Program-made: the position numbers and the translations under genes
Notes under the pieces: generated by a model
The model's input: only the letters and a program-made list of their open reading frames with translations
Databases searched by the model: none
Told to the model about the DNA's origin: nothing
Source: Klebsiella phage fENko-Kae01
Direction: 5' to 3' (one strand)
Length of the DNA stretch: 64,000 nt
Sequence record: OR228459.1
In this document: in pieces, positions 48,845 through 53,585 of the stretch
Numbering within the stretch: position 1 is the first letter of the stretch
Layout: every line of letters begins with the position of its first letter

Positions 48845-49378
48845 ATGTATAATGAATTATTAAAACGATTACTAGAAGCCATTGCTCCGACCGATGTAGA
48901 ATCATCACACTTAAAAACCATTGAACATAATGGGAAAGATTTATATATTACATTTAAAAATGGTGATACATATGAGTACGATGATGTACCGGAAGCTATG
49001 GTTCGTCAAATGTTACGGGTTGACAGTAAAGGTAAATTCCTTTGGCGTTATATACGTGACCGCTACCCCTATCGCAAAACAAAAGCGATCCCCCAACAAA
49101 AATACGATTCGAATCCAAACGCTGTAAAACAACGTCTAAAGTACGATGTGGAAACGGGTGAATGGGTTGATGCCTTGACACCAGACTCCCTAACGAGCGT
49201 TGAAATCCCCGTAGGATACAAATTTAGAGCACCGGATGGTGATACATATTCCTTCCAAGGTGCACAATGGAAAAATGATAGAACTGGTCGCATTGTTAAA
49301 AAAGAAATACGTGACAAAATGAACAATATCGCAAAACGAATGATTAAACTTCGTGGAGATGACAAGGATGAACTATAA
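48845..49378 (+). CDS. KTSC-domain protein
   Basis: [44 protein letters not shown] fits the KTSC domain pattern. Confidence 0.5.
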
Positions 49379-50948
49379 TCAAATTACAGAAGGTATTATT
49401 AATGTACCGCAAGAATTATTAAGCAAAGTTAACGTATATGTTTCCTCATTGGTTGCATTTAAGTTAAAACAATTTTCAGAGAGATTTGAACTACTTAATA
49501 GTACTAACTATACTCCTGAAGAAAAACAACGAATTCTAAATGACATTAAACAAACAATTGGTAAGCTACAGCAAAAATATGGTGCAAAGAACATTTCATC
49601 ACAGACTGCACAGCAAATAGAAGGGAAGAACGTTTCAATTAAATTAGACTTTGATAAGTTTTTTAAAGAGTTAAACTATAAGGGTATTACCCCTGAAATG
49701 GTGGAACAAGTTAAAAACAAAGCTAAGTTTGAACTATATATTGTTGGTGGTGCTAGTGATGTTGGTGGTTCAGTATCGAACGATGGTAGTATTGTAAGAC
49801 TAATGGTACATATCGGACGTTTAAATGGACGTGAATCTCTAAAAACTGCTGATGCAATTATGAGAACTGTATATCATGAATGTCAACATGTAGTACAAGA
49901 TTTTGCAATTAAAACTATCGACAAAGCAAAAGATAGTGCTAAACCAAATAAACAAGTACAACGTCCTACTGATTACGATACAGAAGCAGGATATTACACC
50001 AGTGGTGTAGAATACACCCCACAACTAGGAGATGTAATTAATCTTGTTAGTGATATTCTAGAACGTGATGCAATAGCTGGTAAACTTGATCATAAAGTAA
50101 ATCGAGCTATTAATAATGCACTAGTTGATGCTTACCATGAAGATAATACAGTACGTTCATTCTTAGGTCACATTCGTCAAAAGAATCCCGAAGGATACAA
50201 AAGAGCACTTAAAACAATTTATTCTAAGGTTGCTCCTATTCACCAAACACTAGTACAAAACGGTGTAGATTATCGTTATTCAGATCTAGAACCAGAAGAA
50301 TTAGAAACAAACATTAACGTACTAGCTACAGTACTCCAAATGGCTAGGAAGAACAGTGATGCTTATGAAATTGATGGTAGACAACGTGGTGATGATATTC
50401 AATGGTTAACTATTAAATCGAAAAAACAAGATTGGAAAATTACTGTTGCACCGTATGGTAGTGGTAAGTATTCTGTTTCTCTCGACTATAAAGACTTTAG
50501 TGATAATGCAAAACTAGACTCACAAAAACTTCTAAACTTCATGGGGATTATCACAAGTAGTTCTTATTATGAAGCTGATGACGTACTAGCCGATTTAGAT
50601 CATATATCAGATAGTGGTTCTGAAATGACTGATGAGAAAGCTCGTTCTATTATAGAAAGCCTAATAGGTGATGCAAAGCACTTTGGTATTGCGACAACTG
50701 ATGAGGGTGGTTCTAAGTTTAGTATTGCAGGACTACCACTAACTATTGAGCCATATGAAGATGATAAAACAAAATTAGTACTAAAAGATGATTCCGAAAA
50801 TTTATTCTTCGTTTTACCATCTGCTAAAGTACTTATGCTAATGCAATCCTTCATTACAGCATGTCTAAATAATGAAGAAGAAGCAAAAGAGAAACTTGTT
50901 GACTTCAGCAGTTATATTGAGAAGATTAATAATTTAAGGAATATGTAA
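49353..50948 (+). CDS. large HExxH-motif protein (putative zincin-like), paralogue 1
   Basis: [10 protein letters not shown], then [18 protein letters not shown]. Paralogous to the next gene. Confidence 0.55.
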
Positions 50949-53585
50949 ATGCCTAGTAAATCAAAAGCACAAGCAAGATTCTTCGCGGCAGCAGCACACA
51001 ACCCTGACTTTGCTAAAAAAGCAGGGATTTCATCTAGTGCAGCCAAAGAATGGAATCAGGCAGATAAAAAAGCAGGAACTCTCAAGAAAGGTTCCAAAAA
51101 ACCAGAACGTGTTAAAGAAGAAATCCTCGACGAAGAAATTCTAGATGAAGCGAGTGGTGTTGGTAATTTTCCAGTACCACCATCTTCAATGAAGTTAATT
51201 AGAAAATATGCTTCATCTATTCTTTTAACATATGCATATAAATCCTATCAGAAATATGCTAACAGTACTGACGATGATGAATTGGATAAGCTAGCAGCTA
51301 AGAAGATTTTACCATTCTTACAACGTTTCCAGAAGAAATTCGATGCTTCAGTACTAAATGATGCAAGTATGAAGCGTTATGTTAACCAAAGTATTAGTGT
51401 ACCATTAGATCACGAAGCTGTGTTTAATGAGTTGCCTAAATCTTTGCAAACAGAAAAAGTTCATGCTATTATTAATAAAATGCGTCTATTCATTACATTC
51501 GATGCACGATATGGCAGTAGGGCTGGTGGTCATGCTAGACAGATCAATGCAAACACAACAGAAATTGTATTGGCACTACATCCAAGTTATTATGAATTTA
51601 GCGTTGCTGGTGGTACTGATAGTCTAGAAAATACTATGCACCAATTACAATATTTCATGAGCGGAATTGACCATGAAGTACAACATGCTTTTCAACAGAT
51701 TGTAACTGCTCAAGTAAGTTCTGAAAATGATAAGAATAGAGAACAGAAACAAGGTTATGGTAGTATGGACGATGCATATTTTGCAAGTGGTGTTGAATTT
51801 GGCCCACAAACACAAGATATGATTAACATTGCCAATCACTGGCTTGAAATTCAAAATGATGAAGGGAAACTATCCGGTAAGCCAAATGTGGATATTTCAA
51901 ACGCGATTAAGTACGTTATGAATCGCATGAAAACAACACAGGGTCGTATCTATAAAGCATTAATGAATTATAAAGAAGATGGTAGAGCCAAAAAACACTT
52001 AGCATTAATTTATAAAGGTATTGCTAAAGAGTACGAAAATATTTTAAATCAAGAAGAACACGGTGATTTAGATTTAGAACCAAAAGAAGTTGATGGTGGT
52101 GATGCAGAAAATCGCGTATACCATTCAAATACAAATGGCCCAGATGATGAAGCTGATCCAAATAATCCGATGGTTAAGATTTATCGCAAGTTAGAACGCT
52201 ACGGCATGTTGCCATATAGTATAGAAGAGAAACGTGAACATGGTAAAAGAGTTGATATAACTCAAAACCCATATAACGACCCATCTAATATGGTTTATGC
52301 AACAACTGATGGCGGTATTGTGCGTTTCTGGCATCGCAATAACGTAATTGAAATTCAAGCGTGGTCTGATGGTAAAAACCCTTCAGATGGAAATATGGTT
52401 TCAGTTAATATTCCTGAAGATAAAGTATCTATTGTCATTGATAATTCAAATATGTTTGATAATTTTAAATCCATTGAGAACTTCACAAAAACTGCGGAAC
52501 AAGATATGAATGCAGTTACTATGTCTATCGATGAAATAGCAGATCAATTCCAATCATGGTACGATAATGCGGCTTTCTGGTATGATGATACTGAAGGTAA
52601 AGGTTTAAACTTTGAATTAGATGAAGGAACAGTGTTCTTTAATTTAAAAGGAACACGTTATTCAATGTATATTCAAGAAGCATTAAAAGATGCAGCAGTA
52701 CTTTACAATACTACAACAGAAGAAGAAATTGGATACATTAAGTACTCAGATCTTGAAGAGGTAATGACTTCTATTTTCTCTTTATATTTCCAAGGAACAG
52801 AACGTCAATTCAACAGGCTAATTAAAAATCTAGGAACAAGCTCAGGATATATTGATATGAAATCTTTAGATGAAACATGGAAATATGTTGTTGATAGTTC
52901 CAAGAAGCCAGTAGAAGAATCGTCTATGCGTGGTTTCATGGATTTAGTACAAGATGCGGAAATTGCAGATAGTATTGATCAAGCTGATAAAATGACACTT
53001 TCAAATCTAGAGCGTCGTAAAGCTAAAAAAAGTAATGATAATATCAATCAATTAGGAGAAGAAGAACAATTAGATGAAATGCCACAGCGTTTTGATTCAT
53101 TCCAAGATCAAAATCCTGATGAATTTGTTGATAAAACCGCTGAACTAACTGGTAAGAGTAATTTAGTTCCTTTTTCCGAGCATCCAAACTTTACCGTAAT
53201 GCGTAATAAGAACTATACTGGTTTTATTGCATTTGATAAAGAAGGTAAGCAAATTGCTGTAGTTAGTGGTTATCTATCACAAGATGCTGTACTAGGTGTT
53301 AAGAATGTATTTGAAGTAGCTGCGACCGCATCTAAGACTTCAGTTAAAGGTGTTATGTATCAAATCTTCATGGATATGATTAACGCTGGTATTTCAGTAC
53401 TAAGCGACACTTTACATTCTGATAGTGCTATTAAATTCTGGACTCGCTTAATCAGTTCACATAATGTATATGTTGTGGGTGATGGTGAAGTTCTAGCAAA
53501 AGCAACACCAGAAAAAGTACACAAGTACTGGAGTGATGATGAGAACAGCCCAAGTGCTGAACTTCAACTTCTCTTAACGAAGTGA
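50949..53585 (+). CDS. large HExxH-motif protein, paralogue 2 (878 aa)
   Basis: IDHEVQHAFQ, then YFASGVEFGPQTQDMINIA, aligning with the previous gene. Has an extra C-terminal region of about 350 aa. Confidence 0.55.
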   Translation: MPSKSKAQARFFAAAAHNPDFAKKAGISSSAAKEWNQADKKAGTLKKGSKKPERVKEEILDEEILDEASGVGNFPVPPSSMKLIRKYASSILLTYAYKSYQKYANSTDDDELDKLAAKKILPFLQRFQKKFDASVLNDASMKRYVNQSISVPLDHEAVFNELPKSLQTEKVHAIINKMRLFITFDARYGSRAGGHARQINANTTEIVLALHPSYYEFSVAGGTDSLENTMHQLQYFMSGIDHEVQHAFQQIVTAQVSSENDKNREQKQGYGSMDDAYFASGVEFGPQTQDMINIANHWLEIQNDEGKLSGKPNVDISNAIKYVMNRMKTTQGRIYKALMNYKEDGRAKKHLALIYKGIAKEYENILNQEEHGDLDLEPKEVDGGDAENRVYHSNTNGPDDEADPNNPMVKIYRKLERYGMLPYSIEEKREHGKRVDITQNPYNDPSNMVYATTDGGIVRFWHRNNVIEIQAWSDGKNPSDGNMVSVNIPEDKVSIVIDNSNMFDNFKSIENFTKTAEQDMNAVTMSIDEIADQFQSWYDNAAFWYDDTEGKGLNFELDEGTVFFNLKGTRYSMYIQEALKDAAVLYNTTTEEEIGYIKYSDLEEVMTSIFSLYFQGTERQFNRLIKNLGTSSGYIDMKSLDETWKYVVDSSKKPVEESSMRGFMDLVQDAEIADSIDQADKMTLSNLERRKAKKSNDNINQLGEEEQLDEMPQRFDSFQDQNPDEFVDKTAELTGKSNLVPFSEHPNFTVMRNKNYTGFIAFDKEGKQIAVVSGYLSQDAVLGVKNVFEVAATASKTSVKGVMYQIFMDMINAGISVLSDTLHSDSAIKFWTRLISSHNVYVVGDGEVLAKATPEKVHKYWSDDENSPSAELQLLLTK

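Follow-up and report, generated by a model that had tools for sequence, protein, structure and literature searches.

What are the two large proteins encoded side by side ahead of the topoisomerase II genes of Klebsiella phage fENko-Kae01, and what does the HExxH motif that they share say about their function? We addressed this in a 64,000-nt stretch of sequence record OR228459.1 (the window), in which both open reading frames, ORF1 and ORF2, lie on the plus strand, in a region ~99% identical to the Salmonella jumbo myoviruses Munch, 7t3, PHA46 and SE_PL (~350 kb), themselves relatives of 121Q/PBECO4, GAP32, CBB and RaK2. The initial annotation had presented the pair as a duplicated putative zinc-dependent hydrolase that might be delivered by the virion. 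We found that the two proteins have in common a ~290-aa module with an invariant HExxHxxQ...Y...E signature, and consider it probable that this module is a metal-dependent enzyme that is packaged in the virion, processed and ejected.

Translation confirmed both reading frames at their coordinates (Table 1), the HExxH motif in each (IDHEVQHAFQ in ORF2 and its counterpart in ORF1) and a second aligned segment downstream, for which the ORF1 string and YFASGVEFGPQTQDMINIA were both found. The length of 531 aa first given for ORF1 is that of a frame opened mechanically at a GTG (49353); the likely start is the ATG at 49368, giving 526 aa, because all homologues begin with M-[NKR]-[YF]-[ND]-Q and database records annotate that ATG. 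Pairwise alignment upheld the proposed paralogy for only ~300 aa (ORF1 14-318 against ORF2 72-382; BLASTP E=2e-15, 26% identity), where profile-profile comparison of the shared domain is decisive (hhalign 99.9%, E=4e-36); the other parts of the two proteins are without detectable sequence relation. With only three HExxH motifs in the 25,332 residues of the window's reading frames, sharing of the motif by ORF1 and ORF2 is far beyond chance. The third belongs to a 311-aa protein (32445-33380, plus strand; HEVDH at aa 102; phrog_14883, 'virion structural protein') that is Q/N-rich, largely of low complexity and without a Pfam match; we rejected it as another copy of the module (hhalign 2.6%), its HExxH being of the chance type. 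Searches of all window reading frames with hidden Markov models (HMMs) found no copies beyond those in ORF1 and ORF2.

Conservation of the motif extends to every homologue, and it is accompanied by further invariant residues. Within each of the two orthologue families (18 sequences for ORF1 and 23 for ORF2, with identity down to 33%), H-E-x-Q-H-x-x-Q and a downstream S-G-x-E-[YF]-x-P-Q block are invariant; the residues that are invariant over both families together are, in ORF1 numbering, V13, P14, S27, L102, G134, H170, E171, Q173, H174, Q177, Y203, Y209, G213, E215, Q219, I248 and A251. In a more remote alignment of 83 standalone relatives with both window domains, H170, E171, H174, Y209 and E215 are still 100% conserved, followed by Q177, three residues after the motif (99%), P14 (98%) and E8 (96%). 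Nearly all retrieved relatives (143 of 145) carry an HExxH, nearly always as HExxHxxQ, and the two exceptions are fragments. The invariant downstream Glu (E215 in ORF1, E283 in ORF2) is a plausible third metal ligand.

To gauge the breadth of the family, we searched 1.84 billion cluster representatives exhaustively with a profile of the shared-domain alignment, which matched 189 proteins at E<=0.001. Most of these are standalone proteins of 270-320 aa that align over their full length (hhalign 99.7%), the rest including jumbo-phage proteins of 520 aa and 800 aa. The module occurs as a complete unit in N-terminal, C-terminal and tandem positions, in some relatives fused to ART-PolyVal, GNAT, Acb1 (anti-CBASS), LigT/2H-phosphoesterase or DUF4157/eCIS_core-like domains, and it spans four PHROGs (18596, 22033, 34216 and 38692), none with an assigned function. 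Standalone copies lie in T4-like metagenomic contigs, one beside an ATP-grasp gene and one among T4 gp13/gp15-like genes, as well as in the cultured jumbo phages XacN1, Xoo-sp13 and Stenotrophomonas CM1/RAS14; RaK2 and K64-1 encode no HExxH module. By its sequence distribution, this is a widespread mobile module. In one T4-like metagenomic contig (L005, 9153-10864) the standalone module is translationally coupled to a RimK/ATP-grasp-type gene, and in XacN1 (L010, 3137-4810; ORF118-ORF117) it adjoins an M23 peptidase and an RNA ligase; these neighbours may be functional partners. The main text of the XacN1 proteome paper does not mention the standalone copy, ORF117.

Structure prediction with AlphaFold2 places the HExxH motif in long helices (157-187 in ORF1, 223-256 in ORF2), each preceded by three predicted strands (120-126, 134-138 and 142-148 in ORF1; 179-185, 194-200 and 203-209 in ORF2). 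A second helix follows, and the fully conserved E215/E283 stands directly before it (218-236) in a region of low model confidence. Profiles from Pfam, NCBIfam and PDB sequences gave no family link for the whole proteins, sub-fragments, family alignments or a profile of the catalytic core alone. What the core profile did match were TPR-consensus artefacts hitting 'YYxxALELDP', which we discarded. Matches to curated zincin families (Pfam MPTase-PolyVal, SprT-like and Peptidase_M*, and NCBIfam) were all below threshold and anchored on the motif. The module is not recognisable as a member of any curated family.

Among its closest described parallels in function are the zincin-like metallopeptidase (MPTase) domains of polyvalent proteins of phages and plasmids (Pfam MPTase-PolyVal; Iyer, Burroughs, Anand, de Souza & Aravind 2017, PMC5512222). 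These have an HExxH helix after a three-stranded sheet and a Glu in or near the next helix, an arrangement that the predicted structure of the module resembles; they occur N-terminally, C-terminally, internally or in tandem in capsid-packaged proteins that are delivered with the DNA, as the module probably is; and, like the module, they co-occur with ART-PolyVal and GNAT domains; the MPTase of the N4 virion RNA polymerase has been linked to anthrax lethal factor by HHpred (PMC5512222). The module differs in having no Pfam match and no recovered zincin fold, in its HExxHxxQ and Tyr-x5-Glu where phage-type MPTases have HExxHxxD, and in residing mostly in standalone or two-to-three-domain proteins rather than giant ones. 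A second comparator is DUF4157/eCIS_core ('PVC-metallopeptidase', PF13699), which also has an HExxHxxQ(Q) motif, is fused or adjacent to effector domains, is genetically tied to the cargo of contractile injection machines (extracellular contractile injection systems, eCIS) and has been proposed to act in loading, release or maturation (PMC8213781). Among the weak Pfam matches of family members it is the commonest (3 of 30 members, best E 0.093, far below the gathering threshold), whereas PF13699 did not match ORF1 or ORF2 themselves, and it measures ~80 aa against ~290 aa for the module. In two relatives, P0206 and P0207, a DUF4157-like domain and the module stand together as separate domains, the Pfam-matched eCIS_core region of P0206 reading HELVHVLQQ. 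Anthrax lethal factor (M34) and the clostridial neurotoxins (M27) have an HExxH followed after ~35-45 residues by a Glu ligand, and the catalytic Tyr728 of lethal factor lies 7 residues before its ligand Glu735; the module has its invariant Tyr 6 residues ahead of the invariant Glu. The parallel with these toxins is a lead; our searches detected no sequence or structural similarity between them and the module.

How did the module come to stand twice in this locus? ORF2 had been described as a second copy with an extra C-terminal region of ~350 aa, and this we revise. Its additional 347 aa are spread over three places: 67 aa form a peptide at the N-terminus, the middle region is somewhat longer, and the C-terminus carries ~220 aa of linker and GNAT-fold domain. 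The predicted structure of ORF2 resolves into a helical N-terminal peptide (1-41), an acidic disordered linker (43-72), the HExxH module (78-366) with two alpha/beta subdomains behind it (407-651) and, after a second disordered linker (654-719), a confident alpha/beta domain (723-877). The middle region has the same secondary-structure architecture as the C-terminal half of ORF1 and no sequence similarity to it by profile alignment. Related phages show three arrangements of the locus, with the KTSC gene as constant upstream neighbour and topoisomerase downstream: KTSC followed by a 305-aa protein (ORF156) in RaK2; KTSC, an ORF1 homologue and the 263-aa gp161c in phAPEC6/121Q; and KTSC, ORF1 and the long ORF2 in Munch, GAP32 and CBB. 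Neither RaK2 ORF156 nor phAPEC6 gp161c contains an HExxH module, and both share the N-peptide of ORF2 and its C-terminal domain (C-module), which in the RaK2 and 121Q groups is 67-75% identical and part of a separate short virion protein; with tblastn the N-peptide, a short and low-complexity query, matched only itself. From these comparisons of sequence, ORF2 is an ORF1-like cassette inserted in a conserved gene for a GNAT-fold virion protein, and the three architectures offer a natural series of polyvalent-protein assembly by cassette insertion.

The predicted structure of the C-module has the GNAT fold, with NatD/Naa40 (4ua3) and dopamine N-acetyltransferase (3te4) as comparators and, among phages, the GNATs of polyvalent proteins and phiKMV Rac. 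The Pfam GNAT HMM does not match it, and S-K-x-x-x-K-G-[VI]-[VIM]-Y, in which only one Gly is invariant, takes the place of the acetyl-CoA motif Q/R-x-x-G-x-G/A, so that cofactor binding is uncertain. A relationship to the Pfam-recognised GNAT of another family member, P0183, was rejected (profile match 0.45%). With an HExxH module, a GNAT-fold domain and virion-associated homologues, ORF2 has the makings of a polyvalent protein, its delivery being the presumptive part; ORF1, with a single catalytic-type domain, is not polyvalent by itself.

Virion association comes from published electrospray ionization tandem mass spectrometry (MS) of purified particles and concerns homologues of the window proteins. 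In phAPEC6, the ORF1 homologue gp162c was detected with 10 peptides (25% coverage) and the C-module protein gp161c with 6 (PMC7247149). In CBB, the ORF2 homologue CBB_322 gave 30 unique peptides, at the top of that study's range, and the KTSC homologue CBB_320 gave 4; Table S1 of the same work places CBB_322 in the virions of CBB, GAP32 and RaK2, limits CBB_321, the homologue of ORF1, to those of GAP32, gives CBB_320 for CBB and GAP32, and leaves the HHpred columns of CBB_321 and CBB_322 blank (PMC5259590). Beyond such virion-proteome tables we found no discussion of the ORF1 and ORF2 homologues in the papers searched; in PHROG and GenBank they are labelled 'virion structural protein'. The virion part of the initial proposal is therefore borne out for homologues, and delivery to the host is likely by analogy.

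The conserved Glu residues of both families point to processing in the head. T4 gp21 cleaves after the Glu of L/I-X-E. The N-terminal propeptide that T4 head proteins lose on maturation ranges from 7 residues in Alt to 65 in gp23, and Alt, which is shortened at its other end as well, acts on host proteins by modifying them once it has been ejected (PMC9026906). We checked every alignment column with at least 90% Glu for a hydrophobic residue at P3. E8 is the sole qualifying site among nine conserved-Glu columns of the ORF1 family, and E62, E67, E657 and E710 qualify among nine in the ORF2 family, all four in two predicted disordered linkers; at these five sites P3 is L, I, V or M in 96-100% of sequences, and none of the catalytic-type Glu residues passes this filter. 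The L-x-E↓M-P site that precedes the C-module (the arrow marks the predicted cleavage) is independent of the HExxH module because it is also present in RaK2 ORF156, from a phage that encodes no such module, as well as in phAPEC6 gp161c. A candidate enzyme exists: CBB_255 is a Peptidase_S77/T4 gp21 homologue with a 73% identical gene in Munch, 7t3, PHA46 and SE_PL, and in Munch this gene (189083-189703) lies ~0.5 kb before the region equivalent to the window start. The presence of a predicted prohead-protease site at each boundary between domains suggests that separating the parts falls to the head protease and not to the HExxH domain. T4 Alt, IPI, IPII and IPIII are likewise encoded outside the main structural cluster, head-packaged and equipped with short N-terminal propeptides that gp21 cuts off after L/I-x-E; ORF1 and ORF2 have no sequence or domain homology to them, carry an HExxH module and a GNAT fold instead of ART, and would be processed and ejected by analogy. 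A shared N-terminal 'I-K-V-P' targeting motif was not significant among the window proteins (2 matches against 0.8 expected).

Under the reading that we favour, ORF1 and ORF2 would be incorporated into the prohead, as the MS data on their homologues suggest; a gp21-type protease would take off residues 1-8 of ORF1 and split ORF2 at E62/E67, E657 and E710 into the N-peptide, a fragment of ~590 aa with the module and one of ~168 aa with the GNAT fold, as site conservation predicts; and the fragments would be ejected with the DNA, by analogy with T4 Alt, the internal proteins and polyvalent proteins. The module would then be a metal-dependent hydrolase, most likely a peptidase with host proteins as its substrates, and modification of host targets may be the task of the GNAT-fold fragment; motif conservation, the accessory and fast-evolving distribution of the module and its fusion partners elsewhere point this way. 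Two observations qualify this reading. No structure or profile search of the module recovered a zincin; therefore 'zinc-dependent hydrolase' stays putative, the conserved HExxH domain being the part of that assignment that stands. In addition, L-x-E-G-(L/I)-I-x-V-P is intrinsic to the N-terminus of the module, and 10 of 16 multi-domain relatives keep it at internal boundaries. In that place it could mark a point of release, cut by the prohead protease or by the module itself, or be a mere structural strand.

This last point bears on an alternative that we regard as unlikely, in which the module is a self-processing, cis-acting peptidase that leaves host proteins alone and cuts its own N-terminal L-x-E↓G boundary, and perhaps other linkers, so that it and the adjoining cargo domains come free, either within the capsid or once injected. 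Release of this kind has been proposed for polyvalent MPTases and for DUF4157 in eCIS toxins. The boundary motif does fall exactly between cargo (Acb1, ART or GNAT) and module, autoproteolytic release has been proposed for MPTases by Iyer et al. (PMC5512222), and DUF4157 combines the same HExxHxxQ signature with cargo association. However, most family members are standalone proteins of ~290 aa with only 5-10 residues to release, the E657 and E710 sites of ORF2 are conserved in RaK2 ORF156 and phAPEC6 gp161c as well and, since RaK2 has no HExxH module, must be recognised by another protease, and RaK2 packages its C-module protein in the absence of any module. Equally improbable, in our estimate, is a role confined to the head, either structural or scaffold-like (as an inner-body or DNA-organising protein) or as a second head-maturation enzyme. 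The database label, the high peptide count of CBB_322 and the internal radiation-sensitive body seen by bubblegrams in 121Q-type phages, with components yet to be identified (PMC7247149), would fit such a role, but the catalytic-type signature is absolutely conserved over ~190 divergent relatives, which speaks for an enzyme, fusions to ART-PolyVal, Acb1 and LigT suggest roles in host conflict, and standalone copies lie among replication and nucleotide-metabolism genes rather than head genes. Nor is the module a core morphogenetic factor, because RaK2 and K64-1 lack it and build similar virions. Least likely is a metal-dependent enzyme that is not a peptidase or not a zincin, with a new fold that uses HExxH...E for another kind of hydrolysis, e.g. 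of nucleotide second messengers, cell-wall peptides or modified nucleic acids: the lack of zincin matches, the association with phosphoesterases that break down nucleotide signals (Acb1 and LigT/2H), and the ATP-grasp/RimK-type ligase, RNA ligase and M23 peptidase next to standalone copies would allow it, but HExxH with a distal Glu in a strand-strand-strand-helix-helix order is overwhelmingly a peptidase signature, the module's spacing of 36-41 residues is like that of botulinum neurotoxin and anthrax lethal factor, and its Tyr 6 residues ahead of the Glu is reminiscent of Tyr728/Glu735 in the latter.

A more far-reaching version of the packaged-enzyme reading, which we put forward only tentatively, is that the ~290-aa module defines an unrecognised, widespread family of virion-injected metalloproteases of jumbo and T4-like phages that cleave host defence or takeover targets at the start of infection. 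It would be the protease counterpart of T4 Alt, and the Acb1, 2H-phosphoesterase, ART and GNAT fusions would mark a pre-packaged counter-defence toolkit; in a similarly tentative variant, the module would be a self-releasing cassette that frees co-packaged effectors at its own L-x-E↓G boundary. If the module is an injected protease, its host targets would reveal the means by which T4-related jumbo phages strip the cell of its defences or gain control of it ahead of any phage gene expression, and interest in the family would rise greatly with protease activity on defined targets. Proteins of the ORF1 and ORF2 type were already catalogued as virion proteins of unknown function; the present analysis adds recognition of the module, of its invariant signature and of how widely it occurs, together with the composite origin of ORF2, a GNAT fold for the conserved C-module and the pattern of protease sites. 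Dozens of jumbo-phage virion proteins lack a known function, and ORF1 and ORF2 now have a testable identity. Pfam covers none of the wider family (four PHROGs, ~190 cluster representatives), for which a catalytic signature and the limits of the domain are now defined.

Table 1. Coordinates of the genes, domains, motifs and regulatory features of the locus, in window positions
Feature	Position	Strand	Basis or remark
Promoter-like site, sigma-70 consensus TTGACA-17-TATAAT	47454..47482	+	12/12 match; first of two ahead of the gene string; consensus match only
Second perfect sigma-70 consensus promoter-like site	47653..47681	+	Directly upstream of IF3-like gene; consensus match only
IF3 (IF3_N + IF3_C domains) and ClpS-like adaptor genes	47716-48786	+	Domain matches; in predicted transcription unit with ORF1 and ORF2
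KTSC-domain protein gene	48845..49378	+	Pfam KTSC E=2.4e-13
ORF1, 526 aa, phrog_18596	49368..50948	+	Predicted short propeptide, HExxH module, two small alpha/beta subdomains
ORF1 aa 1-8 (MNYNQITE), predicted propeptide	49368..49391	+	Ends I-T-E, the only conserved [LIVM]-x-E in the ORF1 family; putative cleavage
ORF1 HExxH module, aa 9-320	49392..50327	+	BLASTP, profile alignment
HECQH (H170, E171, H174)	49875..49889	+	Translation; Q177 at 49896-49898
Invariant Y209...E215 (YYTSGVE)	49992..50012	+	E215, candidate third metal ligand
ORF1 C-terminal half, aa 330-526	50355..50945	+	Two repeats of 5-strand meander + 3 helices (predicted)
ORF2, 878 aa, phrog_22033	50949..53585	+	N-peptide, HExxH module, two alpha/beta subdomains, linker, GNAT-fold domain
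ORF2 aa 1-67, N-peptide and acidic disordered linker	50949..51149	+	phrog_16759-like; ends at invariant L-D-E67↓A68; second site E62
ORF2 HExxH module, aa 68-385	51150..52103	+	BLASTP, profile alignment
HEVQH (H242, E243, H246)	51672..51686	+	Translation
Invariant Y277...E283 (YFASGVE)	51777..51797	+	Orthologue alignment
ORF2 middle region, aa 407-651	52167..52901	+	Two alpha/beta subdomains
Predicted disordered linker, aa 654-719	52908..53105	+	Invariant [LIVM]-x-E sites V-E-E657↓S and L-D-E710↓M-P
C-module, aa 711-878, GNAT-like fold	53079..53582	+	phrog_25121; model and fold search
Intrinsic-terminator-like hairpin	53606..53633	+	12-bp stem + T-run; before topoisomerase II genes

The position of the pair before the topoisomerase genes had been taken as a hint at function, and this did not hold. 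The genes run in the order IF3-like, ClpS-like, KTSC, ORF1 and ORF2; the stop of the KTSC gene overlaps the start of ORF1 by 11 nt, translationally coupling the two, and ORF2 starts 1 nt past the ORF1 stop. Because a strong terminator-like hairpin closes this string before the topoisomerase genes, ORF1 and ORF2 lie outside the topoisomerase unit and are grouped with IF3, ClpS and KTSC instead. No T4-type late promoter (TATAAATA) was found near the ORF1-ORF2 operon, and the motif is not enriched within the window.

The window also holds other packaged proteins and unusual neighbours. The IF3 and ClpS-like genes share their predicted transcription unit with virion proteins, behind two perfect sigma-70 consensus sites. 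Inside the same replication and translation gene block, a 179-aa protein (46894-47433, plus strand; phrog_16501) is a further packaged protein, with homologues CBB_316 and phAPEC6 gp167c reported as virion-associated. Right after the topoisomerase II genes lies a 794-aa 'virion structural protein' (57226-59610, plus strand; phrog_13911) without a Pfam domain, whose phAPEC6 homologue gp158c was detected by MS with 9 peptides; an exact T4-late-promoter-like TATAAATA stands just upstream of its gene, at 57186-57193. In RaK2 (L009, 7579-9288), a homing endonuclease gene sits between the genes for the topoisomerase II subunits and is absent at the equivalent place in the window (55681-55734).

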